Below, one piece after another: positions 16,100 to 59,419 of a stretch of DNA of 64,000 nucleotides; the first letter of the stretch is position 1, and each line of letters begins with the position of its first letter. The stretch covers positions 113,588 through 177,587 of the forward strand of contig CAZSGM010000001.1 of the NCBI GenBank assembly GCA_964606505.1. The letters run 5' to 3'. The position numbers and the translations under genes were made by a program. This DNA comes from an uncultured Lachnospiraceae bacterium (GTDB taxonomy: Bacteria; Bacillota; Clostridia; Christensenellales; UBA1242). The notes under the pieces are model-generated. The model had not been told where the DNA came from, did not search any database, and saw only the letters and a program-made list of their open reading frames with translations.

Positions 16100-16764
16100 C
16101 CTCGCAGCTTGCGCGGTTGAGGAGTAGCGGATTTTGGGAGAAAACAGACACGGCAGGCTTGAGACGTAGACGCGCCATTTTTAAGTGTAGCGTGCCGAGG
16201 TTGTTGCGCGCGCGTTGGTTAGTGCGCGGCATAATTTGCGCAAAGGGCAACTTAAAGATAATAAACGCGAGTGGGGGTGATAACGCACCGTTTGGGAAGG
16301 GACGCCGAGGTTGTTGTGCGTAAGTGGGTTTGTTGTTGTGTTTTGTTAGTGTTAGTGGTAAGTGCGGATGTGTTGCCTGTGGGTTGCAGCGTAAGGGAGT
16401 GATTGTGGAAAAAATAAAAAAGTTTACAAATGGGGTGTAAATAAGTTGAAAAATTTGTTTAAATTGTGTATAATTGCTTTGTAAAATAAAAATAAAAGTT
16501 TACCTTATTTTAGCAAATTTCGCGAGATTGGTTGCACATAATGCAATTATTGCTGTGCGTAAAAATTTTTAATGTGAAGTTTGTAATTGGTGTAAAATTG
16601 TTTTTTTGCGATAGTTGAAACTTAATTGTGAGTGAATATTTTTTGAGTGCGGGAAAACACGCAATAAGTAATTACATTAAAAAATGTAAAATAGAAAACG
16701 TAAACTTGCGCAAAACAATTGCAAAAATGCTAAAAATAAGGGATAAAAAGGAGCGGTTTTTATT

Positions 16765-19427
16765 ATGAATAAAAGCGAATTTGAAAATGTGAAAAAGTTG
16801 GGGGGGGGGGGTATTTAGTTGCTAAAAATAGCGGCTTAACCACTCGAAATGATGCGGACACCTGCAAAAATATGCAGGATAACCCCCATTTTTTGCAATA
16901 TTTGCAAAATTGTGAAAATGTGCAACATAATGGTAATTTCACAAAAAAAATCACTCAAAACAATGCAAAATTGCAATGCAAAAATTCATTTAAAAATAAT
17001 GACGAATTAAATTTAACAAATAATGATTTATCTATTAATTCGCACAATCAAAATAATCGCAAAAATAATAGTGTATCAAATGCGACTAGCAAGTGCGCAC
17101 AAAAAGATACATTAAAGAATATTGCGAGTGAAAATTTTACTCCTTTTAAAAATAGTTATAATAATGTAAGTTATAAAAATAATGCAACTCAAAATGCTAG
17201 TATGAGTTGCAAAAATAGTGTAAGTTGTAAACGCGATGTAAGTTGCCAAAGTAAGGCGGGTTACAAAAGCACAGCGTATTATGAAAACGGGATAAACAAC
17301 AAAATTTGCACGACAAAGTGTTCCGCTACGACAAAAATTTGTTTGTGGATTTTCTTGTTTGTTGCGTGCCTCGCGGTTACGATCGGGTTTGGCTACTTTT
17401 GCGGAAGCAACGGCAGCCTCAAGGTTGCACCTGAAATTGAAACCGCCTCAGCAGCAGGCGAAACTTGGAGCGGTAGCGGCACGCAAGCCGACCCGTACCA
17501 AATTTCAAATTATACCGACTTGCTCGCGCTTTCTACCGCTTGCAACACGCCAACAAGTGGAACAACTTACAATCACTATCAAAGTGTGTATTTTAAATTG
17601 ACAGCAGATATAACAATAGCAGCGGCGGACTTAAATAATACAACGACCTCCACAACTTGGACGCCAATCGCCTGCGATCCAACAGGGGTTAATTATGCTA
17701 ACTGCTATTTTTCGGGTATTTTTGACGGAGATGGGCACACTATAACTTACGCGGGGGATGTAACTGTAAATGTCGGCGTTTCTACTGCTTCAAGTCCAAA
17801 TTTATATTATGGCTTGCTATTTGGATATGTTTTGGGCGACGCTAGTGATACTGCTAGTGCGACGTATGGAATTGTTAAAAATACCAACATAACATTCGGA
17901 GCCGCTAGTAGTTCAGCCACCGCTTTTACTTTGAAACTTGTTGCGGTTAGTTCCAATAACTGCATTGGAACGTCTCAAGTTGGTGGACTTGTTGGCCGTT
18001 TAAGCAATGGCAAGGTTTCACAATGCAAATTTAATGGTAAGCCATTTAATTTTACAGTTGAATGTGATAGTATAAGTGGTTGGGATCGTGGTTTTGCAGG
18101 AATTGTCGGATATACGTCAAGTTCCAGAGTGGACAATTGCGAATTTAATACCGATTATTCATTTTCGGATTTGCCTACTGGGATTTTAGAGGGCGGTGCA
18201 GCCGTAGTTGGGTATGCACCTAATAGCACAATCATCGAAAAATGCAAGGTAAATGGGAATGTAACATTTTTAAAAGAGGCTTCGGGAACTAATCGCGCAG
18301 AACTTGGTGGAATATTGGGGAGTGGCTCAGCAAATGTGAGCAATTGTGGTTTTTATGGTAACTTTGTTTGCAAGTGGCGGTCGGGTTCAGGGACTAAAGC
18401 GGGTGCAATTGCTGGGGGTGCTACTAATATTGAAAATTGTGTTATAGAGGGGGAAGTAACTTTAGGGGAAAAAGGCGGGGCTGCATCCTGCTCGGGGATA
18501 ATAGTCGGTAGCGCTACAAGTGTTTCAAATTGCTATGCTAATGTGAGCAATTCATCACTTTGTATGACTGGCACGGATGGTGAGTTTGGGATAATCGCAG
18601 GTAGTGTAACGAATATGAGCAATTGCGCAATAAATGTGCAATTAATTGATTTAATAAGGGCGACTAGCCTAGTATCCTATGCTAGTGGCACAGTAAACAA
18701 TTGTATAGCAATTGTGGATGTTGGGTCATATAGCGGGACTCTATATCCATTTTCTAATGGGTTTTATAATTGTGTAATAATAGCATCAGGGACAAATGTT
18801 ACTGCAGCGTACCCAATTAAATCCAATACCACCAACACCTCAGATACGACTAACGGGCTTTATTCACTAACATCAACTGACGCAAACCTTAGCGAGTTGA
18901 AAAGTAAAACCACCTATACATCGGGGTCAACTCATTTCACTTGGAACACTGACGGCGATGTTGCGGGGAGCACAACAGGTGGGCACGCGTGGGATTTTGC
19001 AAACACTTGGATGATTAACAGCACTATGAATGATGGGTATCCAACGCTGCAAATGCTGATAACATCCTACAACATCACGCTCAACGTAACCACTAATCTT
19101 AGCGGCTCCACCTTGGGAACAACCACAGGCTCAAGCGGTTCATCCTCAGCAACCGCCACGGCAAACCCTGCCGACCAGTTCATAATTTACCGCCTTGACG
19201 AGTCTGGAAACCTCGTCAACCAGTTTGTCGTCCGAAACGGCAGCACGGTTACCTTTGAAGTCGACAAAAACAAATCCTTTACTATAATGATTAACTACAA
19301 ACTTTATATGGTAACAACAATCGGAACCGAGTCGACAAACAAGAAAACATACACTCCAACTGCCGACACGACAATCGACATCGACATAACCGCCCCTTCA
19401 GGCGTCAACAACTGGATTGTTATTTAA
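16765..19427 (+). CDS. GLUG-repeat surface protein paralog A, interrupted at the 5' poly-G tract (phase OFF as assembled)
   Basis: AAGGAG RBS, then ATG 16765. The leader MNKSEFENVKKLGGGG hits TAG after the 12-G tract. The main frame (track ORF 16872-19427) is open back into the tract and fuses if the tract is 13 or 10 G. Architecture: Asn-rich N-region, TM helix ICLWIFLFVACLAVTIGFGYF, GLUG repeats, conserved C-terminal domain. Confidence 0.8.
16800..16811 (+). repeat. Homopolymeric G12 tract (candidate slipped-strand phase-variation site)
   Basis: Counted directly: the final g of block 16791-16800 plus 11 g. Confidence 0.9.
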
Positions 19428-19475
19428 AAGGATATCTAAAAAAAACAATAATAAATGAATAACGCAAAAAAGGTT

Positions 19476-19506
19476 GAAGAAACGTGCATTTCTTCGCCCT
19501 TTTTTA
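19476..19506. terminator. Candidate terminator between convergent genes
   Basis: GAAGAAA / TTTCTTC stem, 6-nt loop, GCCC then T6. Confidence 0.45.
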
Positions 19507-19529
19507 TTTAATCGCGCGGGTCGCGTTGG

Positions 19530-20615
19530 TTAGTGCGCGGCGGCGGTTTCGGCTTTGAGCAGTTTTTTAAAGTACTCGTAATTGTGGCGTGCGTCCGACG
19601 AAGTTGGGTTCGCCTTGCAGGCTTTGAGCGCAAAGGTTTTGGCGGTCTTATTGTCGCCGAGGCGGTGGTAACAAATCGCGGAGTTATAATAAGGAATAAA
19701 GTCGTAGCACTCGGGCAGCACAAACGCGCCACTGTTAATGTTCGGCGGCTGTACGGCAAGTTTGAGCCAGTAAAGCGCCTCGCGGTAACGCCCCGCGTTT
19801 ATGAGATAGAGCGACAACTCACACAAAACCTCACTCCGCGGCGAGTCGTGCGCGAACGACAAGAACAGCGACTCAATCGCGTGCTCGGGCGCGTTCAGCT
19901 TGTAGTAACACTTGGCGCGGTTGAGGCACGCCTGTATGCGGTTTTCCACAAAACTCCCTCGCTGCAGCAAAAACTCGTCGTAGGCGGCGATTGCCTGCGC
20001 GAAAAGGTCGTTGTAGTAAAGTTCGTTTGCGTAGTAAAACTGCATACGCGGCGAAAACGGGGTGTTGGCGGCGCGCAGTTTTTCAAAAATACGCAAGTTG
20101 CGTCGCGGGTCGGAGGGTTTTATCTTGCGGTGTTCAATGACGATGTCGGTGTACTCAACCCTGCCGCTCGGGGTTATCGCCTCGTGAATGGGGTCGCTGA
20201 AGTGGTAGGCGGGGTCGTTTCGCACAAGCCGCTCGCGCATAAAGCAGAACGTAGGGCGGTTCCTGCCGTCGAACGCGGTCGCGTATTTCATAAAGTAGAC
20301 GTCTGCGGGGTTGTCGCGCCCCTTGATTTCGTTGATTTTTGCCGCGTTTTCGGGCGAAACATAGTCGTCCGCGTCCAGCCACATCATATAATCGTACCGC
20401 GCCTTTGAAAACGCATAGTTGCGCGCGCGTGAAAAGTCGTCGCACCACTCGAAATCGTAGGCCCTGCAGCCGTTGCGCTCCGCAATTGCCTTGGTTTTGT
20501 CTGCGCTCCCTGTGTCAACAACTATTATCTCGTCGGCAAACGCTTTTGCGCAGTGTAAAACCCTCTCAATAACCAATTCTTCGTCTCTCGCTATCAAACA
20601 AACACTTATTTTCAT
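19530..20615 (-). CDS. Family-2 glycosyltransferase with a C-terminal TPR region
   Basis: MKISVCLIARDEE...VVDTGSADKT and WLDADD motifs (GT2 DxD). The C-terminal half is TPR-like. The start was moved to ATG at 20615. Confidence 0.85.
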   Translation of the reverse strand: MKISVCLIARDEELVIERVLHCAKAFADEIIVVDTGSADKTKAIAERNGCRAYDFEWCDDFSRARNYAFSKARYDYMMWLDADDYVSPENAAKINEIKGRDNPADVYFMKYATAFDGRNRPTFCFMRERLVRNDPAYHFSDPIHEAITPSGRVEYTDIVIEHRKIKPSDPRRNLRIFEKLRAANTPFSPRMQFYYANELYYNDLFAQAIAAYDEFLLQRGSFVENRIQACLNRAKCYYKLNAPEHAIESLFLSFAHDSPRSEVLCELSLYLINAGRYREALYWLKLAVQPPNINSGAFVLPECYDFIPYYNSAICYHRLGDNKTAKTFALKACKANPTSSDARHNYEYFKKLLKAETAAAH

Positions 20616-20864
20616 AAAACTAATATATGCACCGTCCGCCCGCGTTGTACTAGGTTTTTGCGTGGATGTGTTGCGTTGAATTTTGCGCACGGTTGAATTT
20701 AGTCCGCCTGTCCGCCGTGTAGTGTGTTTGTCTGTTTATTCGGTTACTCGTCGCTTGCAGTTTTGGGAATGCTTCCTGTCTTGCAACTTGCTGTGCTGTC
20801 CGCGCCGCTACCTGTTTGGCTGTTCGTCCACCTGCCACGGCGTGTCAGGAGTGGGACACCATGG

Positions 20865-20895
20865 GGAGAAAATTCGGGAATTCCGAATTTTCTCC
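20865..20895. repeat. 13-bp perfect inverted repeat with a 5-nt centre, ~115 bp upstream of the recombinase gene
   Basis: GGAGAAAATTCGG GAATT CCGAATTTTCTCC. Confidence 0.7.
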
Positions 20896-21009
20896 TATAT
20901 TTAATTAGGAAGTTGAGTAGAAGTGGGGAATTTTGGGCGCATTTTTTTTAAGGTTGGGGGTTGATTGCGCGAGAAGTTTTTTGATAAAATACGGGAGGAG
21001 GTTATACAA

Positions 21010-21921
21010 ATGAAACTTAATGATTGGATAGAAATTTGGGCACAGACAAGTTTCGTCAACATCAAAGAAAGAAGCCATGACGTTTATAATTACTACCTCA
21101 CTTTTCACATCTTAGAGCGTCTTGGCAATTTGCAAGTCGAGGAAATTTCGCAGGAAACGCTGCAGAGTTATGTTTTGTCGCTTGCACTTGGAGACAAATG
21201 TTTTTCAAGCAACACTATCGCGGAGAGTTTTCGCGTGCTGAAGGCGTGCTTGCTCGATTATTATGAAAAATACGACATTAAGCCTGTGAAGTTCAAGGGT
21301 GTCAAAATTCCTACGACGGCGCGCCGCAAAATTAGGTGTTTTACCGAGGGCGAGCAGCGCAGGATTGAAAACCGCGTCAACCTTGTTCGCAACCCGAGCG
21401 AAATTGGCGTACTGGTCTCGCTTTACACAGGGTTGCGGCTGGGCGAAGTGCTAGCGCTGACGTGGAACGACGTCGACTTTAGCAAAAACCTAATCTACAT
21501 AGATAAGGCGCTATACTATAAAGGGAAACAGATTGTAATTTCGACGCCAAAAACGCCGTCGTCCATTCGCGTAATCCCGATACCGCAGTTTTTGCTGGTG
21601 TTGCTGCGCGAGAGGAAGAAACACGCGGTTGGCGAATACGTTGTTGCGGATGAGTTGGGGTTGCCGATTATACCGCGCACGTACCAGTACAGGTTTTACG
21701 CGCTGCTCAAGCGGGCGAAGGTCGAGAGACGGGGTTTTCACTCGCTGCGCCACACGTTTGCAACGCGCGCCCTTGAGTGTGGTATGGACGTTAAGTCGCT
21801 CGCCGACGTTTTGGGACACGCGAACCCTGTCGTAACACTCAAGCGTTACGCGCACTCAATGCTAGATTACAAAAAAACTATGATGAACAAAATCGGCAAA
21901 TTGTACTCGCGCGAGTATTAA
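21010..21921 (+). CDS. Tyrosine site-specific recombinase (phage integrase family)
   Basis: GLRLGEVLAL (Arg I), HSLRHTFAT (H-x-x-R), LGHANPVVTLKRYAHS (His/Tyr) and an N-terminal SAM-like domain. GGAGG RBS before ATG 21010. Confidence 0.9.
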   Translation: MKLNDWIEIWAQTSFVNIKERSHDVYNYYLTFHILERLGNLQVEEISQETLQSYVLSLALGDKCFSSNTIAESFRVLKACLLDYYEKYDIKPVKFKGVKIPTTARRKIRCFTEGEQRRIENRVNLVRNPSEIGVLVSLYTGLRLGEVLALTWNDVDFSKNLIYIDKALYYKGKQIVISTPKTPSSIRVIPIPQFLLVLLRERKKHAVGEYVVADELGLPIIPRTYQYRFYALLKRAKVERRGFHSLRHTFATRALECGMDVKSLADVLGHANPVVTLKRYAHSMLDYKKTMMNKIGKLYSREY

Positions 21922-22346
21922 CTTGGCAATTTGCAAACAATTAGCGTTTTATTGAAATAATCATTTCCAATTAAAACGCATTTTAACAAAACGAAAAACG
22001 CGTTGCTTGTACCTCCTTATGTTTTGGGGTAAGTAACGCGTTTTTTGTGTGTATTTGAGTAGGTTGCTCGAGTTATTGCATTGGGGAGTGGTTGAGTTGT
22101 TGGTTAATTTTGGCGGTTTCAATGGTGTTTGCTTTGCGCTTGTGAGTGTTTTGTGGGGCGTATAGGGACTTTGAAGATTATAAAAAATTGCAGGGGGCGG
22201 GGGGTGTTCGGGGTATTTATATTGCAGATGTTTTGCACGTGGTTGATTTGCTTGTATTTTTGCGCGTTTTACGGTTTGGTTTTAGGCTTATTTTGGGCGC
22301 ATTTTTGTTTAATTTTTGGGCAGGGGTAAGCCGATTGTAAGAAAAA

Positions 22347-22383
22347 AAATCTTTCGCTTATGTGTCCCATAAGCGAAAGATTT
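22347..22383. repeat. Left recombination-site candidate (IR-L): 16-bp-arm palindrome around the asymmetric core TGTCC
   Basis: AAATCTTTCGCTTATG TGTCC CATAAGCGAAAGATTT, preceded by A8. On the minus strand this reads as a hairpin followed by T8. Confidence 0.85.
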
Positions 22384-22391
22384 ACACCATT

Positions 22392-22420
22392 ATTGTAGCA
22401 AATTAGATAAAAAATATCAA
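22392..22420 (-). promoter_or_regulatory. Near-consensus sigma-A promoter inside the invertible cassette, currently pointing away from gene 22596
   Basis: Minus strand: TTGATA (22420-22415), 17-nt spacer ending in TGc, TACAAT (22397-22392). Confidence 0.6.
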
Positions 22421-22505
22421 ACATTTTGCCAAAATTATTGAAAAATCATTAAAAAATGGTCATTTTTTGCTATTTTTCTCCTCAAAAAATCGAATTTTGA
22501 AGAAT

Positions 22506-22536
22506 ATCTTTCGCTTATGGGACACATAAGCGAAAT
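22506..22536. repeat. Right recombination-site candidate (IR-R): same arms, core GGACA (reverse complement of the IR-L core)
   Basis: 22506-22535 is the exact reverse complement of 22352-22381 (30/30). Confidence 0.85.
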
Positions 22537-22595: not shown

Positions 22596-25349
22596 ATGGA
22601 AAAAAATAGGATAGGCAAAACCATACTACTGAATGTGGGGTTGGTTATTGCAGTGATTATGCTTGGGGTGGGCGCGTTTTTTGCGACACGGGCAGAAAGC
22701 GGCGAAGCGGGCGATTTTGTTTTGACGGGCGAAGGTGTTGGGGCAGGCGACTACGTAACTGCAGACGGGGCGCACAAAATAGGTGTTGCAACAGACGAGG
22801 GCGGGGGTACTACAATTGAATATTTCAACACTGCTGCGCCCGAGACGACGTACATGCTAACTGCTAGCACCACGACGTCGGCGGCAGGGGTTGAGACGAC
22901 AACCTTGACAGGAAAACTTGGCACGGACAATAAAAATGCAACGTTTGTTATGTTGAACGATAACGCCATACTTTGCGTTTCACATATTAAGTACGCAACG
23001 GCGAGCGGGAACGTTGTTTTGTGCAGGTACACGCCGTTTGTGAAAACATACACGCCGACAGCGGACGCAAACGGGGTAATTGAGGTTTGGCGCAATGACG
23101 CAAAAGTTAGCGCATTTGCAAACTTCCAAGCCGCGTTCAGCTTTGCGCAAAACAACGACACGATTAAACTAAAAAGCAACTTTTTGGCTTCTGAGGGCGC
23201 GGCGCTCGTTGGTAAAACTCTCACAATTGATGGCGGCAACTACCTGCTCGACAAGTCGCAGTGGGCGAACACGGTTTTTGCCGTTGCAGAGGACGCGCAA
23301 CTCACAATTAACAACCTAGACATAGACGGTGGGGCAACCAACTGGGCGGTCGACTTCGACGCTGTTACTTTTGAAGGCGCGACAATCCCGCTTGTAGCGG
23401 GTTCAGCGGATAATGACCCACAAACAAGTTATCCTGCCGTTACTTCAAAGGGCGAGTTGATTGCTAATAATTTAAACATTAGCAATATTTATTCGTCGAC
23501 AGCTGAGGGGATTGGGTTATTTGTGGCAAAAGGGAAAATAAACATTAGCAATAGCGCATTTTCACACTTAGCTTCAAGTATTGGGGGTGCTATGCGCATA
23601 GGGTGCGATATCATTGAGGAAAGTTTGGATAGTTACCCCGTAGAAAGCGTAGTTTTTAATAGTGTCGATTTTACTAATAATTATGCAGCGGCTTGGGGTG
23701 GTGGTGCAATTTATATCGGAAACATTGGCGAGGGGAGTTTTGAAGATTGCAACTTTGATACAAATGCGGCAAGTGGGTTAAATGGCGGCGGCGCAATTAG
23801 TATGTACACACCAGATTATGCTGCGTACAATTTGGGGCTAACTTATGGCAAAATAGATATAAACAATTCAATTTTTAATAATAATTGGGCAGGGCGCTGT
23901 GGCTTTGCAATTTATAACCGCGATGTAGAATTTACAATAACGAACACAAAGTTCACTGGGAATATCGGCGCATATCGTCCTGATGGGGCTGTCGCCACGT
24001 TTTTTTGTAGAGTAAATAGGTCAAACTATCGTTTCGCTGTGCAGATAATTAAGAATTGTGTATTTGAAAATAACCAAGGAGGTGTTGCCTGCATTGCAGA
24101 CAATGCGGGAGCTGCGGATATTAGAATTTCTGATACTCAATTTAAAAACAATGTGGGGAGTTCGAGCACATTGTTGTATACAGGTGTTGGGGAAATTGAT
24201 AACTGCACATTTGAAAATGAGCAAGTAACTGGAAGTGTAATAAGCGTGCCAATGTACAACGGAGATAGTCGTTATGAAAACGCAGGGCTGACGGGTCCAT
24301 CGCTAACAATCAAAGACACAACTTTCACAGGCACTCCTGACGGCGTTGATGATATTTCAATGAAAAAAGAAGAAGGAAGGGTCGATGTAGCCACAGAGCC
24401 CAAAATAATAATTGAGGGCGAAACAAAGGCAAACATTTCAATGGAGCACGGTGCAGAACTAGATGTTGACGGAATGCTAGATGGTAGTGTTACTTGCGCG
24501 GTGGACACCCCTAGCGATACTAATGTAACAGTTGGCACAAACGGCAGCATAACTGGCGGCGTTGTGCAGTACTATAACCTAACCATAACCTACCCTAACC
24601 CCGACAACGACACCGAAAGCCTAACTGAAACAATAACTATTGCGGGCGGCGCAACCAGTTCGCACGCGATTGAAATGTTGCTCGGCGTGAGCAAGGAAAA
24701 CCACACGCTCGCGCTTTACACAGATAGCGCGTGCACAATTGTGTGGGACTACAACTGCGACGGCGCGGAAACGCTGTACGGCAAATGGGAGTGGTCGGTT
24801 ACCATAAACTATTATGACCAAGGCGGGGTAAGGTTTACCGGAACGCACGGCGCGGCGTTTGCGCAACGACACATCAACGGAAGAAAAACAATTATAGACA
24901 CGCCAACAAAAGGCGGTTACATCTTTGATGGGTGGTACTTGGGCGACTCAACTTGCTCAGACGAAAGCAAAAGGGTTACTGAACTTAGCGCGGACGTGAA
25001 TTACGAAAGCATTTCGCTTTACGCTAAATGGCGAGTTTTTGAACAAACAATCACGCTTACGTGCCAAAATTTCACTACGCAACAGTTTATGGTGTACGTG
25101 TTTATTGGGGACGACCTTGTTATGCAAGTAAAGCCGACCGCAACAACAACCATCACGCTTAGCAGGCTAAAAAACTATGACAAAACGGTTCGCATTTGTT
25201 TTGTGTACGGTTACCACGGCAAAATTGAGTACACAAGTTTGACAGGCGCGAAAGCAAACGGGCGCAGCGTCAACGTTTCGCTTGTCGAAAATACGCAAAT
25301 CAATTACAAAATAACAACTCCAAACGTCAACGCAAGCATAATTGTTTAA
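22596..25349 (+). CDS. Large surface protein: N-terminal signal/anchor, PMP/pectin-lyase-like beta-helix repeats, Listeria-Bacteroides-type repeat, C-terminal domain related to the GLUG paralog tails
   Basis: AAGGAG RBS. GGAIY/GGGAIS-type repeats (NNYAAAWGGGAIYIGN, GLNGGGAISM). GGYIFDGWY motif. The C-terminus ...NVNASIIV aligns with the ...VNNWIV[VI] tails. Confidence 0.85.
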   Translation: MEKNRIGKTILLNVGLVIAVIMLGVGAFFATRAESGEAGDFVLTGEGVGAGDYVTADGAHKIGVATDEGGGTTIEYFNTAAPETTYMLTASTTTSAAGVETTTLTGKLGTDNKNATFVMLNDNAILCVSHIKYATASGNVVLCRYTPFVKTYTPTADANGVIEVWRNDAKVSAFANFQAAFSFAQNNDTIKLKSNFLASEGAALVGKTLTIDGGNYLLDKSQWANTVFAVAEDAQLTINNLDIDGGATNWAVDFDAVTFEGATIPLVAGSADNDPQTSYPAVTSKGELIANNLNISNIYSSTAEGIGLFVAKGKINISNSAFSHLASSIGGAMRIGCDIIEESLDSYPVESVVFNSVDFTNNYAAAWGGGAIYIGNIGEGSFEDCNFDTNAASGLNGGGAISMYTPDYAAYNLGLTYGKIDINNSIFNNNWAGRCGFAIYNRDVEFTITNTKFTGNIGAYRPDGAVATFFCRVNRSNYRFAVQIIKNCVFENNQGGVACIADNAGAADIRISDTQFKNNVGSSSTLLYTGVGEIDNCTFENEQVTGSVISVPMYNGDSRYENAGLTGPSLTIKDTTFTGTPDGVDDISMKKEEGRVDVATEPKIIIEGETKANISMEHGAELDVDGMLDGSVTCAVDTPSDTNVTVGTNGSITGGVVQYYNLTITYPNPDNDTESLTETITIAGGATSSHAIEMLLGVSKENHTLALYTDSACTIVWDYNCDGAETLYGKWEWSVTINYYDQGGVRFTGTHGAAFAQRHINGRKTIIDTPTKGGYIFDGWYLGDSTCSDESKRVTELSADVNYESISLYAKWRVFEQTITLTCQNFTTQQFMVYVFIGDDLVMQVKPTATTTITLSRLKNYDKTVRICFVYGYHGKIEYTSLTGAKANGRSVNVSLVENTQINYKITTPNVNASIIV

Positions 25350-29271: not shown

Positions 29272-31754
29272 ATGGTAAATAATGACGAAATGAAAAACGC
29301 GAAAAAACTGGGGGGGGGGGGGGGTATTTAGTTGCTAAAAATAGCAGCTATACTGCCCAAAATGATAAGGATACCTGCAAAAATATGCAGGATAACTCCC
29401 AATTTTTGCAACAATCGCAAAATTGCGAAAATGCGCAAAAAAATAATAATTTAGAAAAAATATCAATCCAAAACAATGAAAAACTGCATTGCAAAAAATT
29501 AATTATTAACACAGAAAGTAATGATGAATTTAATTTAATAAATAATGATTTATTAATTAATTCAAGCAAGCAAAATGATTGCGAAAAAAATATTAATGTA
29601 TCAAATATTTGTAGTAGTAAATGTGCGCAAAGTGATACATGTAAAAATAATACAAGAGAAAATTTTTCTGCTTTAAAAAATAGTTATAACAATGTGAGTC
29701 ATAAAAATAATATAAGTTACAAAAATAATATAAAGGCATATTCCGCTACGACAAAAGTTTGTTTGTGGCTTTTCTTGCTTGTAGCATGCCTCGCGGTTAC
29801 AATTGGTTTTGGTTGCGTTGGCGGAAGTAGTGGGAACGGCAGTTTAAAAGTTGCGCCCGAAATTGAGACTGCCACTGCGGCAGGTTCAAGTTGGAGCGGC
29901 AGCGGAACATCGGGTTCTCCCTATTTGATAAGCAACGAGGCGGAGTTGACCGCGCTGGCTACTGCGTGCAACTCAGGCACAGCGTATTCGGGAACATACT
30001 TTAAACTAACTCAAGATATTTCAATAACATCTACAAACTGGGCGCCAATCGGATTTGACGAAAGTTCGGCGGGTACGCCTACAAATGTTTTTTCGGGGAT
30101 TTTTGACGGCGCGGAACACACAATTACAATAAGCAACACTTTCAGTAAGGCTTTTGATTTGACGGTTGCGGGCGGCTATGCGTATTGTGGTGCAGTATTT
30201 GGATTTGTTCAAAATGGACGAGTGTTAAATCTTAATGTGAAGTTTAATCTTGGCGCAAATTCAATGTTTGATCATTCATCAGCAACAACAACTAAGATGT
30301 ATTATTATATGTATGGGGGGATTGTTGGGGGGTGCCAGTCAGCAGATAGTGAAAATCCCATTATTCAAAATTGTAGTGTTTTAAGTGAAAATAATTCCGA
30401 AATCAAAGTAAATTTTGGTTTTAACAGATACTGTTCTTTTGGTGGGATAGTAGGCAGAGTCATTGGGAATGGAATAATAGATAATTGCTCATTAAACGCT
30501 AGTTTATCTTCTATGGGACACTCTTTTAAGGAGGGGGGGATAGTTGCATACTCAGAAGGTAAGGTTACCAATTGCAGTGTCAATTCAGATATAATTTGTG
30601 GGGGAACCGTAACCTCAGGGGCTTATGTGACTGACCAAAAACGTGGGGGTATTGCAGGGGTGGCAGAAACAATCGAAAATTGCGCATTTAATGGTGGAAG
30701 TTTTACTTGTGATGCTGGAGAAATATATGGAGTTGGAGTTATAGCAGGTGAAGCGACTACTATTAAAAATTGCAAGGTTCTAAAGGGGGCGGATAGCACA
30801 AAGAAAATAAAGATTGAGACTGGGTCAGGGACAAAAAATGGTTTTCCTGCGGGAGTTATAGCGGGGGCTTGTAAATATATTGAGAATTGTTATACTAACG
30901 CAATTATTGATTACGTCAAAACGTGGGGAGATAGCCGCGCATATGCAGGAGTAATTGCAGGGCAAGCAACAACTGTGAAGAACTGCAAAGCTGACGTCTC
31001 TATAGGTAGTTATAGTTCTAATGACATTTGTTACTTTGGGCACATTGTGGGGGCTGTAACCACATCGACATTAAACGGTTCAACCGTAAATCCGAGTATA
31101 ACAAACTGCTTCATACAAGTATCTACAACGGCTAGTCAGCCGACAAATAACGCGCAGGTTTGCTCAAATGTGAGTAGTGGAACCCTCACTACCTACAACT
31201 GCGTATTTATAGGGGTTACGGGGCTAAAATTCACAAGCAGTATTGCGGCAACTGCGGGCGACAGTTACGGGTTATACGCCTCAAGTTCAGATGTTGCTGC
31301 GCTAAAGAAAACATCCACCTACGCGGGAGCGGGCGCAAATGGTTACACTTGGAACTCCGCCGCGCCGTGGGACTTCGAGAGTGCGTGGTGTATTGAAACT
31401 GAGAACGAAACCTATCCAACACTGCAATTTATGAGCGCGCCGTGCACAGTTACAATAAATGTTACAACAAGCGCGGGTGCGGGCGGTGTTGTCGGAACGG
31501 ATAAGTATATCCTCTACAAACTAAATAGCGCGGGCACGGTCGTCAACCAGTTTGTCGTTAGCCACAACAGCGTAGTAACCTTTTTGGCAAAACGCGGCGA
31601 GAAAATAACGCTGCTAACAACTTACAGGTCGTACCTTTATTGGACGGTAGACGGCACGCAGGTTGATAAGTACCAGTTCACGCCGTCAGGCGACACTACA
31701 ATCGCCATACACATAGCCGCGCCTGCCGTCATCAACAATTCAATCGTGATTTAG
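29272..31754 (+). CDS. GLUG-repeat surface protein paralog B, interrupted at the 5' poly-G tract (phase OFF as assembled)
   Basis: The ATG 29272 leader MVNNDEMKNAKKLGGGG hits TAG after the 15-G tract. The main frame (track ORF 29385-31754) fuses with 16 or 13 G. Same architecture as paralog A. Confidence 0.8.
29310..29324 (+). repeat. Homopolymeric G15 tract
   Basis: Counted directly (1+10+4). Confidence 0.9.
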
Positions 31755-32182: not shown

Positions 32183-32282
32183 CACAAAGAAAGTTGTTGC
32201 GGGCTAAGGAAATTGTTGGGGCTTGAGAAATTATTAGGGGTCAAAGAAGTTTGTTAGTGGCACAAAGGAAGGGAATGTTATG
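32183..32282 (+). repeat. Five tandem ~19-20-bp degenerate units (AAGGAAATTGTTGGGGC-like) running into the start codon of the mTERF-like gene
   Basis: Units start at ~32183, 32204, 32223, 32242 and 32262, with an extra copy at 32126. Each contains an SD-like AAGGAA/AAAGAA/GAGAAA word. Confidence 0.6.
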
Positions 32283-33569
32283 ACAATAGAAGAAATTTTA
32301 ATGAGCAGATATGGGTGGAAGCAAGAAGATATTGAGGCTAAGCGCGAGGTACTTGCGCACATTTCACATCTAACTGACGATGATAAAGTTTACGCAAAGG
32401 GGAATTTTTACGTAAAAACATTTTTTATGACTTATGCCGACCTTAGGAAGGTGATAAAGGCATTTCCGCAAATGCTGGGGCTGTCGGAAGATTATGTTAT
32501 TAACAAGATAGATTACTATGTATCTATGTTTGGGAACGCCGAAAGTGTTCGGAAAGCGTTTATTAAATTTCCGCAAATTTTAAGCATTTCAAACGAAACA
32601 ATTAACGCGAAAATAGAGAAATACAAGAAGAGATTGCACTGCGAAAGAGCGCACGTTGGGGCTATGTGGGCTGAGTATCCGTCAATTCTTCATTATTCAG
32701 ATAAATATATTGACGGAAAAATTGACTACTTAATAAAAACCTTTGAGGTCGAAGAGTACGAACTTGCTTGTATACTTAAACGTTCGCCACAGATTTTGGG
32801 GTTATCCAGCGAAACCATTACTGCAAAGCGCGACTTTTATTGCGATGAACTTGGGTTTAGCCGCAAAGCCGTCGTTAAGCTTGTTAGGGATTTTCCGACA
32901 ATTTTGGGGCTTTCCAACGAAACGGTTTTGTATAGGTTCAACTTTTTCAAGGCGCAGTATGGGTTGGACGATAAGCATGTCGCGAAGATGTTTACAATGA
33001 TACCGCAGATTGTTGCTCTGCCCGACGAAACCATAATGAACAAGCAACATTTGTTTAGCGATGTGCTCGGCGTAACTAAGGGGGAGTTTGCCTCAATTAT
33101 TAGCAGACACCCGCAGGCGCTCACAATATCGGCGACCGCGCTGAAGTACAAGGCGGACCAACTTGCTTCACTTGGTATTGCGCGAAAGGAACTGCTTAAT
33201 GACCCGATGATTTTGAGTTCGCCTGCCAATATGCTTAAAGTTAGGTACATTATTTTGAGGCAGGTTGCAACGCGCGAAGAGATTTTAAAGTCCAAGGGTT
33301 GGTATATGTTCAACCAAAGCAAGTTGTACTCTAGGTATGCGTATATAAAGGATGTATTAAAAAAAGAGCCTACCTTGTCTGACTTGTTGCGTAGCCAACA
33401 GCGCTTTGAAATGAAGTTTGGATGGATTGGGATTGATGATGACTGGACTGAACCTAAATTTACAATGGCAATAGTTGACGAATTGGCGCAAAAGGTGGCA
33501 AAAGAAGAAAAAATCGAACTTACGCGCAAAGACCGTGAGGTATTAGGCACTTGCATAGAGAAGGAGTAA
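32280..33569 (+). CDS. mTERF-repeat protein (helical ~32-aa repeats)
   Basis: At least eight repeats of the pattern FPQ[IM]L[GS]LSxExIxxKxxxxxxxxGxxxxxVxKxxxxxP (e.g. FPQMLGLSEDYV, FPQILSISNETI, SPQILGLSSETI, FPTILGLSNETV, IPQIVALPDETI, HPQALTISATAL). Confidence 0.75.
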   Translation: MTIEEILMSRYGWKQEDIEAKREVLAHISHLTDDDKVYAKGNFYVKTFFMTYADLRKVIKAFPQMLGLSEDYVINKIDYYVSMFGNAESVRKAFIKFPQILSISNETINAKIEKYKKRLHCERAHVGAMWAEYPSILHYSDKYIDGKIDYLIKTFEVEEYELACILKRSPQILGLSSETITAKRDFYCDELGFSRKAVVKLVRDFPTILGLSNETVLYRFNFFKAQYGLDDKHVAKMFTMIPQIVALPDETIMNKQHLFSDVLGVTKGEFASIISRHPQALTISATALKYKADQLASLGIARKELLNDPMILSSPANMLKVRYIILRQVATREEILKSKGWYMFNQSKLYSRYAYIKDVLKKEPTLSDLLRSQQRFEMKFGWIGIDDDWTEPKFTMAIVDELAQKVAKEEKIELTRKDREVLGTCIEKE

Positions 33570-33872: not shown

Positions 33873-33896
33873 TGGGGTTTGCTTTTTGTTTTTTTG
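33853..33896 (+). terminator. Intrinsic terminator overlapping the stop codon of 33573-33872
   Basis: GCAAACCCCAC / GTGGGGTTTGC 11-bp stem followed by a T-rich run. A G7 run follows at 33897-33903. Confidence 0.7.
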
Positions 33897-34130
33897 GGGG
33901 GGGCAAATTTGTGAGCGTGCGGATGTTGTGGCGAGGAAGGCAGGAAATTTTGGGGAAAGACTTGTAAATTTTGTCTTAGTGTGGTATAATTATTTTTAGA
34001 TACTTGCAAAATAATATATTATATAGGTTTTACAATGTGTGAAACTTTACAACAGATGGAGAGTGAGAGTTGTTATCATATAATGGTTAGGTTATTTCGC
34101 AAATTTTAACATAATGGGAATGATGAGGGA

Positions 34131-37281: not shown

Positions 37282-38396
37282 ATGAAAAAGAGAACAAATG
37301 TTCTAATATCGGGGGGGGGGGGGGCTCAGAAGTTGACCAAAATGACAGCGATTTAAAGCCCCAAAAAACTTGTGAAAAAGCAACTTTATTGAGTGCGCGC
37401 CAGCAACAAAATAATAGCGCATCATCTCAAAATGATTTAGGTACAAAAAGCCAAAATGTCAATAATGATTATCCGCAAAGTGGATTGAGTGAAAAACAAT
37501 GCTTGAATGGAAATGCCACTAGCAATGCATACAAACTTGATAATCCAAATTTTGGCAACAATATAAAACGAAGAAATAAAAAGAATTTAATAGCAATACT
37601 AATTTGTTTTGTATTGCTTTTGTCATTTACATTTGGGGTGTGTTGCACTGCAAGTTTGTTGCATGACTCAAAAACTGCAACAGGAACAATCGAGTTTGAG
37701 TTTGAGGAGTTGGGACCAATGGTTAGGTTTTCTTCTTCGCAAGCCTTTTCTCTTTCCACTAATAACAATGCAAAGAATTGGGACGGAACACTTTCATATT
37801 CCGCAAATAGAACTGCATTCACAGAGTGGGACGGCACGACTACTTTGAATGCCGGCAAGAACGGGAGTAAATACTACTTATATTTGGCTGGTGAAAATAA
37901 CACATACCTTTCAGGGACGAGCCAGGGTTCGACTTCTAATAATTGTGGTTGGAAATTGACTGGGAATGCAAACATTTCGTGTTCGGGGAATATTGAAAGC
38001 CTACTTGATTACCCCACAGTTGCTGATGGGGAGCATCCAATGATGGCAAAATTTTGTTATCAGTATTTATTTTATAATTGTAGTAAATTGGTGAGCGCAC
38101 CAACATTGCCCGCAACAACATTGACAGGTGGTTGCTATTTTTATATGTTCAATGGCTGCACTTCGTTAAGGGTAATCAACAGTGAAGCTAAAAGTGGTCT
38201 AAGTGGATATGAAACGGTATATTTGGATATGAGCAAATGTACAGAGGTATCGGGGAGTTGTAATAATATGTTCGCAATACAGCGAATGCTAGTCAATCTG
38301 GATTTAAAGCCACGCCAGAAAGTACTACAATTTACTACATACATAGTAGTAACAGCATTGTGCCAGCAACAAGTAGTTCTTGACGAAGATAAATAA
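37282..38396 (+). CDS. Membrane-anchored LRR-like (BspA-type) surface protein, interrupted at the 5' poly-G tract (phase OFF as assembled)
   Basis: GGAGG RBS, then ATG 37282. The leader MKKRTNVLISGGGG stops at TAA 37354 with 14 G. The main frame (track ORF 37389, TTG) is open back into the tract and fuses with 15 or 12 G. There is no in-frame ATG before the TM helix. Contains the CYQYLFYNCSKLVSAPTLPATTLTGGCYFYMFNGCTSL repeat pattern. The 3' end is uncertain. Confidence 0.7.
37311..37324 (+). repeat. Homopolymeric G14 tract
   Basis: Counted directly (10+4). Confidence 0.9.
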
Positions 38397-38684: not shown

Positions 38685-39365
38685 TTAGCGGGCGGGGATT
38701 GTTGCGAGCACGGCGGACGTGATGCAGAGGCAGATTTTCTTTTGGTAATCGTGGGATAAAAGCAGATGTTCTTCGTCGGGGTTAGAGAGAAAACCGCACT
38801 CGACTAAGATTGAGGGTTTATCGACACACTTGAGCATAAACAGGTCGCCTGCTTGTGCTTCGCTTCGCGCGTAGGGGAGTTGTTTCTTGAAAACGGCTTG
38901 CAGTGTTTCGGCGAGTGCTTTGCCTGTGCCTTTTTCGTCGTCGTAAAACACTTGCGCGCCGTGCGAGGAACTTGCGGCGTACTTGTTCATATGTATGCTG
39001 ATGACCGCGTCGGGGGCGGCGTCAACAATGATTTGCCTGCGCCGTTGCATATCTTCGCGCTTGAAACCGTTTTTGTACTCGCTGTACAGCCCGCCTTTGT
39101 CCGAGCGCGTCATAACGACGGTTATTCCGTAATCCTCCATAACGCTCTTGAGCATAACGCAGTACTCAAGGTTGAGGTCGCTTTCAATTGTTCCGCTCGC
39201 GCCAACCGCCCCGACGTCAATCCCGCCGTGCCCCGCGTCCAAAACTACGGTTATCGCGCCAATCGGAACGGCGCTAGACGCTGCGACCTTCACGCCAAGA
39301 AAGGGAACTCCCAAGGCAAAAAACACCACCGCAACAACACTTGCAAACAACACAAACTTTTTCAT
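38685..39365 (-). CDS. N-acetylmuramoyl-L-alanine amidase (Amidase_3, CwlD-like)
   Basis: Signal peptide, LDAGHGGIDVGA, ISIHMN and ILVECGFLSNPDEE motifs. Confidence 0.9.
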   Translation of the reverse strand: MKKFVLFASVVAVVFFALGVPFLGVKVAASSAVPIGAITVVLDAGHGGIDVGAVGASGTIESDLNLEYCVMLKSVMEDYGITVVMTRSDKGGLYSEYKNGFKREDMQRRRQIIVDAAPDAVISIHMNKYAASSSHGAQVFYDDEKGTGKALAETLQAVFKKQLPYARSEAQAGDLFMLKCVDKPSILVECGFLSNPDEEHLLLSHDYQKKICLCITSAVLATIPAR

Positions 39366-39885
39366 CCCTCTCCCTCAAAACTCAACTTTCATATTATCCC
39401 CATTAATGCCGCCGCACGCTTGCGCTCGTGCCGCGCTCGTGCCGCGCTTGTTCTCGCGCTCGTGCCTGCACCCGCAACACTGTCATACGCTCGCGCCTGC
39501 GCCTATTAAAATCACTGTGCCCGCCGTGTGCGTGTCTCTATCAAAACCGCCACAGCCCGTTTTGCAACCGCGCGCATAAAACTCATTAAACCTGTGTGTG
39601 CACATCGCCGCAAGTTTGCTTGTTGCGACTTTTGCGCGCCTAAGTGCCACGTCTGCAACGCGCACGTTCGCGTGCATTTGATAAAAACGCCCGTCCGCTA
39701 ACCGCCCTAAATTGCGCCAATTGCCGCGAGTTGATTTATTGCGAGCTCTAAATGTCTGCCACGCGGCAACAAAAAAAGACAAACAACTACAATTTATTAT
39801 ATTTGAGTTGACTGCCCAATATGAAAGATTTAGTTAGAAAAAATGTTTGACTAAATTTGAGAATTTGGTTAAGTACTTAACTAAA
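39221..39885. repeat. Direct repeat DR1, left copy (665 bp): amidase codons 1-48 plus 520 bp upstream
   Basis: Collinear with 43138-43802 at a constant offset of 3917. Six substitutions, all within the first ~135 bp; the rest is identical. It ends 4 bp after the perfect 14-bp palindrome GTTAAGTACTTAAC (39868-39881). Confidence 0.9.
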
Positions 39886-40134
39886 TATAAAAGTATAAAA
39901 TCTCCTAACAAAATAATTGCTGAAGGTTTAATTCCCCAAAAAACAAAGTTTATTTGCCACCAAATATTGAAATTATTTTTAACTTTTAAGATTAATATAA
40001 AGAAATTTTAAAAAACTTTGCAAATAATGATACATAAGTATTGACTTTTAAAAATTACATGTTAAAATGTAAGAAAAAGGATTGAAAAGAATTTTATCTC
40101 TTTCAGTCTTTTTACATTTAGGTGGAGGTGAAAT

Positions 40135-43029: not shown

Positions 43030-43058
43030 GTATTCTATTTTATTGTGAACACACAAAA

Positions 43059-56941: not shown

Positions 56942-59419
56942 ATGATTAAAAGCGAATTAGAAAACGTGAAAAAAGTGGGGGGGGGGGGTATAACTGCTAA
57001 AAACAGCAGTATACCCGCAAAAAATAGCAGTTATCCTGCAGATTTTGACAAAAACTGCAAAAATTCACAATATTTAGATAATACGAAAGAAAAAATAAAA
57101 AATGCACATATTACCTATAATGAATGTACTACAAAAACCATGTGTGCAGAAAAGGTGGGTAATATTATGTCAATTGAAAATAAAAATAAATATAAAACTA
57201 AAAATGGAAATAATAAAGTAAGCGTTCCTCAAGTATCCCATAATGAAAGCGCGATAAACTGCGCGTGTGTTACGAGTGTGGGTTGCGAACAAAATCACGG
57301 CGAGAAAAAAGTTTCAAAACACGTATGCGATAATTGTGAAGAGTTTTGGCGTAGGAATTGCGAAGCGGGTTGCGCGAACGCTATTAAGCCGAATGATACT
57401 AAGTTTAATAGGGATGAACGGGCGGAAGCAAAAGTTCGAAACGCGTTCACGGCGAAACTTTGCTTGTGCCTTTTTGCAATCGTTGCGTGCGTTGCGTGTG
57501 CGCTTGGGTTTTGCTTTGCGAGTTTGAGTGAGAGTTCCGAGTCAAATGTTATTAGCGCAGCGGCAGCATTTGGCGGTGGGACGGGGACTGAGGCTGACCC
57601 GTACTTGATAAGTTCGTTTGCAAATTTGAAGTCGCTGGCAACTAGCTGCAACGGCAACACGACTTATGTGGACAATTATTTTAAACTTACCGCCGATATA
57701 ACAATTAGTGGAACTGACTTAAGCAGTTGGACTCCAATTGGTTGTGATACAACAGGCAACAATACGGATAACCGCTACTTTTCAGGTATCTTTGACGGCG
57801 ATGACCACACAATCACTTATCAGGGCGCTGTAAATAGAAGCATAGGGGGCAAAACTATATATTGGGGGCTGCTGTTTGGGTATGTAAAGGGCAATGCTAC
57901 AAGCACAGTGGCAGCAACCAACGGCATTGTAAAAAATATAAATATTGTGCTTGTTGGTAATGAAACAACTACCCCCGATGAATTTCAGATGACGTTTACT
58001 GGTGGGGCCCTGCTTATTGGGGGGATTGTGGGTCGTTCCAATGCGGGGGTAGTGGATAACTGCAATCTCTCAGGCAGCGCAATGTCAGTTACATTTTCTT
58101 CTGGTAATGATAACTACGTTGGCGGCATTGTTGCTTCCGCTTCATACGTTAACAGCTGTAAATTTTATGCGGATTTCAAAGCGGAAGGTGGTGTATATTG
58201 TTGTGGCGCAATATGCGGAAATGCCTCTACTTACATGTCGACAATTCAGAATTGTGAAGTTATTAGTAAGGTAAACATATCAAAAACAGATAGCGGGTCT
58301 GATTGCTTGGGTATAGGAGTAATTGGGGGATTCGTGGAAGAAGATATCTTAAATTGTTATGTTAAAATAAAGGAAAATTCCTCAATAAGTGCTACTGGAT
58401 TTAATTATGCGAGATGTGGATTGATTGCGGGGCTGGCGAGTAAAAAAATCGACAACTGTTATGTTGAGGCTGATATGGCGTCATTTGTAATTGTTGCTGA
58501 TGACACGTATGCTGGGCTACTTTGCGGGGCTAATGGCGCAGCAAAGGTGTCAAATTGTCTTGTCAATGCAACAATTGACACGGCGTCAGTAGGGAACGGC
58601 TTTTATTTTATTGCCAACCACGGAACGACAAATAACTGTGTAATTATTGCAGATATTGGAACATTAACAGCGTCAAGTGGACCATATCTCCTTGCTCCCT
58701 CATACGCAACCGCCTACAATTGCGTAGTAATTACAAAAGTTGGGGGCGTCGGCACAACTTATCAAATTTCAAGTTCAAACGCAGGCACGACAGCAGACGG
58801 GATGATTTACGACGCAACTAACGGGCTCTACTCCGTGGCTTGGAACAGCAACAGCGTCCTTGTAAACGAACTCAAGCAAACGAGCACCTACACGAGCGGA
58901 ACAGCCAACTTTGCGTGGAACACCGCGGGCGGAACGACAGGCGGAACGGCTTGGAGTTTCGCACCTACCTATGGAAGTGAAACGGGGGTATGGTTCATCG
59001 CAGGTCAAGAAAACGACGGCTTCCCGTTACTAAAACAATTTTACGTGCCGTCGATAATCAGCGTAACAATTAACGTTACAACCAACCTAGGCGGCTCAAC
59101 CACGGGTAGCGGCACAACGGGTTCAATGGGCTCGGCGAGCGCGGGCGGAACCGCGGGCGCAGTCAACAAATTCATTCTCTACAAACTAGACGGACTAGGA
59201 AACGTCGTCAACCAGTACGTTGTCGAGAGTGGCAGCACCATACAATTTGAAAGCACAGCCTGCGACGCCTTTACAATAATGATAAACTACAAACTTTATA
59301 TGGTAACGACAATCGACGGCGAAAATGCCCTGCAAAAAACATTTACTCCGTCCGAAAATAAAACAATTAACATATCCATAACCGCTCCCGCAAACGTCAA
59401 CAATTGGATTGTTATTTAA
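56942..59419 (+). CDS. GLUG-repeat surface protein paralog C, in frame through its poly-G tract (phase ON as assembled)
   Basis: AAGGAG RBS. The single 825-aa ORF MIKSELENVKKVGGGGITAKNSS... has the same architecture (Asn/Lys/Cys-rich N-region, TM, GLUG repeats, C-terminal domain ending NNWIVI). Confidence 0.9.
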   Translation: MIKSELENVKKVGGGGITAKNSSIPAKNSSYPADFDKNCKNSQYLDNTKEKIKNAHITYNECTTKTMCAEKVGNIMSIENKNKYKTKNGNNKVSVPQVSHNESAINCACVTSVGCEQNHGEKKVSKHVCDNCEEFWRRNCEAGCANAIKPNDTKFNRDERAEAKVRNAFTAKLCLCLFAIVACVACALGFCFASLSESSESNVISAAAAFGGGTGTEADPYLISSFANLKSLATSCNGNTTYVDNYFKLTADITISGTDLSSWTPIGCDTTGNNTDNRYFSGIFDGDDHTITYQGAVNRSIGGKTIYWGLLFGYVKGNATSTVAATNGIVKNINIVLVGNETTTPDEFQMTFTGGALLIGGIVGRSNAGVVDNCNLSGSAMSVTFSSGNDNYVGGIVASASYVNSCKFYADFKAEGGVYCCGAICGNASTYMSTIQNCEVISKVNISKTDSGSDCLGIGVIGGFVEEDILNCYVKIKENSSISATGFNYARCGLIAGLASKKIDNCYVEADMASFVIVADDTYAGLLCGANGAAKVSNCLVNATIDTASVGNGFYFIANHGTTNNCVIIADIGTLTASSGPYLLAPSYATAYNCVVITKVGGVGTTYQISSSNAGTTADGMIYDATNGLYSVAWNSNSVLVNELKQTSTYTSGTANFAWNTAGGTTGGTAWSFAPTYGSETGVWFIAGQENDGFPLLKQFYVPSIISVTINVTTNLGGSTTGSGTTGSMGSASAGGTAGAVNKFILYKLDGLGNVVNQYVVESGSTIQFESTACDAFTIMINYKLYMVTTIDGENALQKTFTPSENKTINISITAPANVNNWIVI
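56977..56988 (+). repeat. Homopolymeric G12 tract
   Basis: Counted directly (4+8). Confidence 0.9.

Follow-up and report, generated by a model that had tools for sequence, protein, structure and literature searches.

What does a run of twelve guanines do when it lies a few codons into a gene and leaves the remainder of that gene one base out of frame? The question is raised by paralog A, one of a family of genes for predicted surface proteins on a 321,128-bp contig from an uncultured bacterium, of which we analysed a 64-kb stretch (the window, to whose positions all coordinates refer; G+C 42.7%). As assembled, a short leader frame opens behind a Shine-Dalgarno (SD) sequence, passes through the G12 tract and terminates, and the long frame beyond the tract, here called the body, is cut off from the leader start. 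An earlier note had proposed slipped-strand phase variation at this site, and our analysis points the same way. Judged from the sequence, the G12 tract is very probably a translational phase-variation (contingency) switch: a hypermutable repeat whose length would change by slipped-strand mispairing, independently in each paralog. This reading is supported by the presence of the same tract in paralogs, by homologues in which leader and body are fused, by variation in tract length, by premature stops in the wrong frames and by the weakness of the internal start.

The elements on which the proposal rests, namely the ribosome-binding site (RBS) AAGGAG, ATG 16765, the leader MNKSEFENVKKLGGGGI, the tract at 16800-16811 and the TAG that follows it, were all present where the earlier note had placed them (Table 1). 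The tract falls at codons 12-16 after the SD-preceded ATG, inside the reading frame, and the main frame across it reads ..GGGGYLVAKNSGLTTRNDADTCKNMQDN... As the note had also claimed, the 851-codon frame is open back into the tract: it is free of stops from 16785 onwards, the 2,640 nt on the 3′ side of the tract are fully open, and gain of one G or loss of two (G13 or G10) fuses the leader with the body. The 851-aa open reading frame (ORF) of A was found in a database search to be 100% identical to a deposited protein, P0001. The body frame itself has a stop at 16782-16784 and then no start before the tract, and an alternative upstream start in this frame, such as the homologue P0002 appears to have, is ruled out by that stop and by others upstream. 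Since a search of the entire window against Rfam gave zero matches, no known RNA element accounts for the 5′ region.

Long G runs occur in the window far more often than its composition would lead one to expect. Four are at least 12 nt long (G12, G15, G14 and G12), against 0.0018 expected under a first-order Markov model of the 64 kb; the next longest measures 8 nt, and C runs never exceed 5. At 12-15 nt, all four are well beyond the roughly 8 nt from which an uninterrupted G/C tract can be hypermutable. All four lie on the coding strand, 29-38 nt 3′ of a strongly SD-preceded ATG, and each of the genes concerned (4/4) encodes a predicted membrane-anchored surface protein. Three of the tracts, those of A, B and D, are out of frame, each by one missing base. 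The tracts of paralogs B and C occupy the same codon position as that of A, behind a conserved RBS, ATG and leader; in B, ATG 29272 opens the leader MVNNDEMKNAKKL, and the tract is followed by an identical 21-mer, TATTTAGTTGCTAAAAATAGC. The protein P0011 was assigned to C by its length (825 aa) and contig only. Codon usage adds to this picture, as the Gly codons within the tracts are all GGG, which accounts for 29% of Gly codons, whereas the four other runs of three or more Gly found among 14,043 codons are of mixed composition, with none (0/4) all GGG. Because the tracts use GGG exclusively where other Gly runs are mixed, they appear to be kept as homopolymers and not as mere glycine linkers. 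The fourth gene, D, is unrelated in sequence to A-C and has a layout like that of A: a short leader, poly-G, a disordered low-complexity tail, a transmembrane (TM) helix and an ectodomain. The D site carries G14 in the window and G7 in a different strain (L069, Logan SRR27361839; 97.9% DNA identity over 4.9 kb).

To place these tracts in a wider context, homologous proteins and loci were compared. Fifteen close relatives of the fused A protein were found by database search, and at least seven paralogs lie on the source contig (P0001, P0004, P0007, P0011, P0013, P0014 and P0015), three of them within the window. About three of the contig paralogs are ON and four OFF, where for those outside the window the state is taken from the start chosen by the gene caller. 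P0013 (..MKKDELENTKKVGGGGITAKN..) and P0014 (..MKKLGGGGYLVAKN..) have N-termini that run through the tract, as does C in the DNA of the window, whereas P0001, P0004, P0007 and P0015 are called from an internal Met (MQDN.., MQDS..), the form in which a frameshifted copy comes out of gene calling. Among homologues from outside the contig, P0006 and P0008 likewise read through the tract. The seamless fusion of leader and body that the earlier note had predicted for A exists in P0005, from another NCBI contig or genome, which starts MNKSELENVKKLGGGGYLVAKN, i.e. MNKSELENVKKLGGGGYLVAKNGSL; P0013 and P0014 are also in frame through the tract. The leader peptide is conserved as well, being MIKSELENVKKV in C, MNKSELENVKKL in P0005 and MNKSEFKNVKKL in the locus L068.

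The comparison of tract lengths in related loci that the note had proposed was then made on DNA, for which we used, besides A, B and C, four homologous loci from ENA sample ERZ27271042 (L001, L002, L068 and L070). Lengths of 12, 13, 14 and 15 were all found among these seven homologous leader tracts, in both in-frame and out-of-frame states (2/7 ON, 5/7 OFF; Table 1). In the five OFF loci (A, B, L002, L068 and L070) the tract holds the only defect, and either wrong frame reaches a stop one to five codons further on. Other look-ups returned nothing of use: exact-protein searches with paralogs A and C, P0005, P0002 and a neighbouring 409-aa ORF found no record, a cluster look-up returned neither names nor accessions, a scan of GTDB species representatives with the family alignment found no relative, and a DNA pattern (nine G, a gap and GCTAAAAAYAGC) searched in JGI metagenomes gave six matches, all unrelated and due to chance. 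Separately, we observed an intergenic G12 at L001 2800-2811, after a T run, 3′ of P0006 and 5′ of a 49-aa gene.

Whether the tract can act as a switch depends on which start codon is used, and we therefore compared SD strengths as the energy predicted for pairing with the 16S anti-SD tail. For the leader ATGs, the duplexes reach -9.0 (A), -13.8 (B), -7.7 (C) and -9.3 kcal/mol (D), and ten other gene starts in the window have duplexes of -4.9 to -16.1 kcal/mol. By comparison, the internal ATG 16872 of A, for which the note had recognised no RBS, reaches -3.2 kcal/mol, and the in-frame start candidates between the tract of A and its TM helix range from -4.1 to +1.5 kcal/mol. A comparison of N-termini revealed that the Met at the 16872 position is L in P0008 and V in P0014, and that C-type members have no Met there. 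Furthermore, the SD, ATG, leader codons, tract and the next ~100 nt align across six homologous 5′ regions, which diverge upstream of the RBS. The upstream (leader) ATG is, on these comparisons, the start under selection, since leader ATGs have strong SDs and internal candidates weak ones, Met 16872 is not conserved, the body frame is startless 5′ of the tract, and the leader peptide and its SD are conserved among paralogs. The term leader holds for a conserved 5′ peptide but not for a signal peptide, as these are the first 16 residues of a ~190-residue cytoplasmic tail that is predicted to be disordered. Two gene calls on other NCBI contigs also deserve mention here. The start called for P0002 is an ATG that lies in an alternative frame of the leader (MLWKKTNWKTRKKWGGGGITAKN), so that some copies may carry starts in two frames; P0009 is called from a Val/GTG codon that abuts the tract (MGGGGITAKN).

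In the mechanism we propose, translation would begin at ATG 16765, and slipped-strand mispairing during replication would add or remove one G. At G13, G10 or G16 (ON) ribosomes would go on into the 871-codon body, and at G12, G11 or G14 (OFF) they would stop two to five codons past the tract, so that paralog A as assembled would be OFF by one base. The disordered cytoplasmic tail would tolerate four or five glycines. Because each of the at least seven paralogs on the source contig would be governed by a tract of its own, each cell lineage would display a different subset of the proteins. Tract length would presumably change at high frequency within a population, the OFF state would mean no protein, and the product would probably be exposed at the surface, under selection by the host or by phage.

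Several points weigh against this interpretation and are best considered together. An OFF copy may still yield some protein, by transcriptional slippage on G12 at a low level or by reinitiation at ATG 16872, with a product that keeps the TM helix and the entire ectodomain. Assemblies often miscount a 12-nt homopolymer by one base, and the sole same-strain contig in Logan (99.993% identity over 14.5 kb) breaks off at 16752, which leaves it 13 nt short of the leader ATG, and does not extend across locus A. The states assigned to paralogs outside the window depend, as said, on gene-caller start sites. Finally, the G7 ortholog of D also has A4 in place of A5 upstream and is likewise out of frame, and D could instead be decaying or start downstream.

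Look-ups with conserved neighbours (Ung and a glycosyltransferase) returned this and another same-strain Logan contig; neither crosses tract A or B, and the second is only 3 kb long. Contigs of the runs SRR22923250, SRR22923249 and SRR14160765 match the window at 99.6-100% identity. Two features of these contigs are recorded here in their own right. The end of the first (L003, window 16752) is where the sequence shared among paralogs begins. A second contig of SRR22923250 (L006), which covers the glycosyltransferase-integrase region at window 19382-22113, matches the window at 98.6-98.9% identity, against 99.993% for the first, which hints at a strain mixture or a variable segment around these positions.

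The rival explanation that survives best, which we consider unlikely and which is not exclusive of the proposed switch, is that the tract modulates level or isoform: the body would be made at any tract length, and the tract would tune its amount or its first 36 residues. Long homopolymers support transcriptional slippage, and slippage of RNA polymerase, ribosomal frameshifting and initiation or reinitiation at ATG 16872 would all offer routes to such an outcome. That ATG is in frame and lies 5′ of the TM helix, so a shortened product would still be anchored with its ectodomain complete, and the leader stop at 16816 lies only 54 nt before it, a spacing that permits reinitiation. The data on starts speak against this explanation, in that the SD at ATG 16872 is weak next to that of the leader ATG (-3.2 vs -9.0 kcal/mol), the Met itself is replaced in P0008 and P0014 and absent in C-type members, and the leader peptide and SD have been conserved across paralogs.

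Slightly less likely again is a miscount in sequencing or assembly, in which the true tract would be a stable, in-frame G13 and the frameshift would have arisen when the homopolymer was called. Every platform is prone to errors in a homopolymer of 12 nt, A is off by exactly one base, and the one same-strain contig stops short of the tract. Set against this, only one of the window's four long tracts, that of C, is in frame, and independent assemblies contain out-of-frame tracts of 13 and 14 G and an in-frame tract of 15. In addition, the A/T runs of at least 8 nt inside long ORFs are in frame in every case (4/4), so the assembly is not generally corrupted at homopolymers. Even if A had been miscounted, uninterrupted all-GGG tracts of 12-15 nt would persist, and tracts of this length are known to be hypermutable in Campylobacter, Neisseria and Haemophilus; a one-base miscount at A alone would leave the nature of the element unchanged.

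We regard as very improbable a third explanation, that A is a decaying paralog, a pseudogene with one frameshift in a poly-glycine linker and no adaptive switching. Multigene families often hold dead copies, and four of the seven contig paralogs are called from internal starts. The downstream frame of A is nevertheless intact over its 2,640 nt, the residues invariant in the family are all retained, and the beta-helix model for A is confident. Moreover, the frameshifts of A, B, L002, L068 and L070 fall exactly in the tract and nowhere else, and the exclusive use of GGG argues for selection on the homopolymer rather than on glycine. Spurious poly-G from two-colour Illumina chemistry was rejected, as the tracts are internal to contigs, lie at a conserved codon position between flanks that are homologous on both sides and recur in independent assemblies.

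We then asked what kind of protein such a switch would control. The fused A product has 887 aa. Its N-terminal ~190 residues are rich in N, K, S and C and are predicted to be disordered (AlphaFold predicted local distance difference test, pLDDT, <50). A single predicted TM helix follows, in a region that contributes invariant and nearly invariant columns to the family alignment; lysines precede the helix and acidic residues come after it, a distribution that suggests an N-in signal anchor and hence a type-II membrane protein. Beyond the helix, AlphaFold models ~500 residues of stacked strands at high pLDDT, a predicted parallel beta-helix ectodomain, and then a conserved C-terminal beta-sandwich. 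By these models the product of A is a predicted membrane-anchored beta-helix surface protein, and the label of surface gene given by the earlier note stands as a prediction drawn from the TM helix and ectodomain. As to its label of GLUG paralog, against the Pfam GLUG cut-off of 20.5 bits (PF07581) C scores 23.5 and A a sub-threshold 17.7, with no match for B; PF07581 is a precomputed assignment for the homologues P0006, P0008 and P0010. NCBIfam gave no match for A, C or D. Foldseek found nothing significant among PDB structures (best E = 0.15), so that neither an enzymatic nor an adhesin function can be assigned; the top-ranked structures, none of them significant, are all right-handed parallel beta-helices (the adhesin PfbA, phage tailspikes, polysaccharide lyases and IgA1 protease). 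Searched as a profile, the family matched 16,340 proteins at E<=1e-10. Its top listed matches cover positions ~190-490 and lie mostly in proteins of 1,100-7,800 aa with several matched stretches each, and a handful of the best 150 representatives listed match over nearly the full length, including tail, TM helix and C-terminal domain.

Table 1 Features of the poly-G genes in the window and tract states in homologous loci (ON, tract in frame as assembled; OFF, out of frame)
Feature	Position	Strand	Tract	State	Details
SD AAGGAG, paralog A	16748..16753	+			11 nt 5′ of leader ATG; read from sequence
Leader frame, paralog A	16765..16818	+		OFF	ATG 16765; MNKSEFENVKKLGGGGI, then TAG 16816-16818
Poly-G tract, paralog A (window)	16800..16811	+	G12 exactly	OFF	In frame at G13, G10 or G16
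Body, paralog A	16812..19427	+			To stop 19425-19427; frame open from 16785; ORF caller: 851 aa from ATG 16872 (= P0001)
Single TM helix, predicted signal anchor, paralog A	17328..17387	+			Residues 153-172 of P0001, stretch ICLWIFLFVACLAVTIGFGYF; AlphaFold helix and hydrophobicity
Paralog B	29272..31754	+			Leader MVNNDEMKNAKKLGGGGGI, stop TAG 29329; body called from ATG 29385 (= P0015)
Poly-G tract, paralog B (window)	29310-29324	+	G15	OFF	In frame at 16 or 13
Gene D	37282..38396	+			BspA/LRR_5-type leucine-rich-repeat (LRR) surface protein, unrelated to A-C; homologues of D carry PF13306
Poly-G tract, gene D	37311-37324	+	G14	Out of frame	Ten codons after ATG; in frame at 15 or 12
Paralog C	56942..59419	+		ON	Leader MIKSELENVKKV; uninterrupted 825-aa ORF from leader ATG
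Poly-G tract, paralog C (window)	56977-56988	+	G12	ON	In frame
L001 / P0006			G15	ON	
L002 / P0028			G13	OFF	
L068 / P0010			G14	OFF	Leader MNKSEFKNVKKL, closest to A
L070 / P0003			G14	OFF	

Among the genes of the window are housekeeping genes of a chromosomal kind (efp, ung, rsmA and a fabG-like gene), and the best matches to its EF-P protein among GTDB species representatives are metagenome-assembled genomes (MAGs) of uncultured Clostridia at 87-88% identity, including one that was recovered from a Hadza gut sample, with a 68% match in the MAG ‘Christensenella sp. UBA7584’. By these matches the host belongs to an uncultured lineage of gut Clostridia, possibly one related to Christensenella. 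The beta-helix family is absent from the GTDB representatives that have the best EF-P matches. In more distant Clostridia MAGs we noted G tracts of another kind, at L017 2055-2067 (G13) and L023 4556-4567 (G12), which lie between TTGACA and TAATAT or TATAAT, in spacers of 20-21 nt as assembled, upstream of genes for small membrane proteins. From their position these look like promoter-spacer phase variation, and poly-G seems to be used at promoters too in the wider lineage group.

Other parts of the window hold features of separate interest. An inverted repeat at 22352-22394 and 22493-22535 (43 nt, 86% complementary, with its arms 98 nt apart) is flanked on one side by a tyrosine recombinase/integrase ORF (21010-21921) and on the other by a surface-protein gene (22596-25349), which encodes 917 aa with a signal peptide and a Listeria-Bacteroides repeat. 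Each 43-nt arm holds a palindrome, and the loops, TGTCC and GGACA, are reverse-complementary to one another. The arrangement makes 22352-22535 a candidate for an invertible promoter switch; phase variation of a second type would then exist beside the poly-G genes. The 917-aa gene was also considered as a family member with a degenerate tract and was rejected, as its signal peptide is an ordinary one and leader homology is absent. A 429-aa protein encoded at 32280-33569 has a strong Pfam match to mTERF (E = 2.9e-45), a domain best known from organellar transcription termination factors; in the intergenic region 3′ of this gene, a G8 at 33896-33903 directly follows a terminator-like hairpin and T run (AAACCCCAC..GTGGGGTTT..TTTTTTT). 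A phage-like cluster spans 38685-47797 and includes an Amidase_3 gene (38685-39365, minus strand), phage GNAT-like and DAM-like domains (40967-42181) and a Bro-N gene (47015-47797, minus strand). It is possibly a prophage remnant, and it adjoins the gene for a 2,084-aa Big_2/fn3 surface protein (47905-54159). A direct repeat of ~140 nt (43933-44066 and 45969-46101; 89-97% identical, spacing 2,036 nt) brackets a 332-aa ORF (44322-45320, minus strand) with DUF4143 and only the tail of AAA_14, which may be a truncated ATPase in a duplicated or mobile segment.

Taken beyond the single locus, these results raise the tentative possibility that the lineage runs an Opa-like combinatorial surface coat, in which at least seven beta-helix paralogs and unrelated LRR proteins would switch independently on a modular ‘slippage-tolerant anchor’. 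Such an anchor would begin with an SD, an ATG and about ten codons, continue with a poly-G tract translated into glycines, and end with a disordered tail on the cytoplasmic side and a TM helix. The candidate recombinase-driven invertible element, 5′ of yet another surface-protein gene, lies in the same neighbourhood. If this were true, simple-sequence-repeat phase variation would be a main way in which a commensal, anaerobic Firmicute diversifies its surface. For a few Gram-negative mucosal pathogens, poly-G contingency loci are textbook material; in anaerobic Firmicutes of the gut, to our knowledge, they have hardly been documented, and phase variation there is mostly ascribed to invertible promoters (invertons). 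A family of predicted surface proteins with conserved leaders and tracts in differing states would imply heterogeneity of the surface within a strain, possibly driven by phage, immune or niche pressure. There is also a consequence for annotation, in that gene callers start these genes at arbitrary internal codons and so hide both the true N-terminus and the switch. As a test case the window is a clean one, open to direct checking against metagenomic reads.

How does this locus compare with systems already described? In Campylobacter jejuni, Helicobacter, Neisseria and Haemophilus, genes for surface structures carry G tracts of ~8-15 nt near the 5′ end of their coding sequence, at several loci per genome. 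At such poly-G/C contingency loci a change of one base shifts the frame, and premature stops follow in both wrong frames. The present genes resemble these loci in having an uninterrupted G tract in the 5′ coding region and stops in both wrong frames. They differ in that the host is an uncultured gut Clostridia bacterium and not a Gram-negative mucosal pathogen, that the tract encodes part of the cytoplasmic tail in a protein with an N-terminal anchor, that the tract genes form one paralogous family with a conserved leader, and that switching is here a prediction. The logic of several paralogs per genome, each with its own 5′ coding repeat, recalls the opa genes of Neisseria, in which CTCTT repeats in the region coding for the signal peptide, one repeat per copy, switch independently and yield combinatorial repertoires. 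The opa repeat is a pentanucleotide in a cleaved signal peptide, ahead of a beta-barrel product of the outer membrane, whereas a homopolymer, a cytoplasmic tail and a single-TM beta-helix are predicted here, and there is no sequence kinship; the resemblance to opa is one of logic by analogy only and not of membership. The ectodomain, with repeats of the GGIVG-x-NC type, is like the GLUG (PF07581) beta-helix modules of large bacterial surface proteins and of streptococcal IgA1 protease; unlike these, A falls below the Pfam cut-off and its model has no significant fold match. The poly-G contingency loci of Campylobacter have been reviewed (PMC8355987).

Another precedent is offered by the sortase-dependent pilus clusters of Bifidobacterium breve, for which Penno et al. 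describe slippage at an intragenic G tract as an ON/OFF switch (Penno et al. 2022, PMC9187656). In their account the reference genome has a non-productive length, slippage restores expression, and slippage was measured by maximum-depth sequencing (PMC9187656). Both systems place an intragenic G tract in a surface-structure gene of a Gram-positive gut commensal; B. breve is one of the Actinobacteria and has signal-peptide pilins at two loci with measured slippage, whereas here a family of at least seven is involved and slippage is deduced. Within the Firmicutes, a frameshift in the 5′ poly(A) tract of inlA in Listeria monocytogenes has been described to yield an 8-aa peptide (Orsi et al. 2010, PMC2831843). 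This gene is similar in being a Firmicute surface gene whose start is followed within a few codons by a homopolymer, and in the very short peptide that a frameshift leaves (17 aa here, 8 aa for inlA); the inlA tract is a short poly(A) at a single locus that is mainly read as a means of reversible inactivation, and the tracts here are G12-15. Literature searches brought up no account of poly-G phase variation from Christensenellales-like Clostridia. Seen against these systems, the working principle suggested by the DNA is that of a standard homopolymeric-tract contingency locus, placed in an unfamiliar host.

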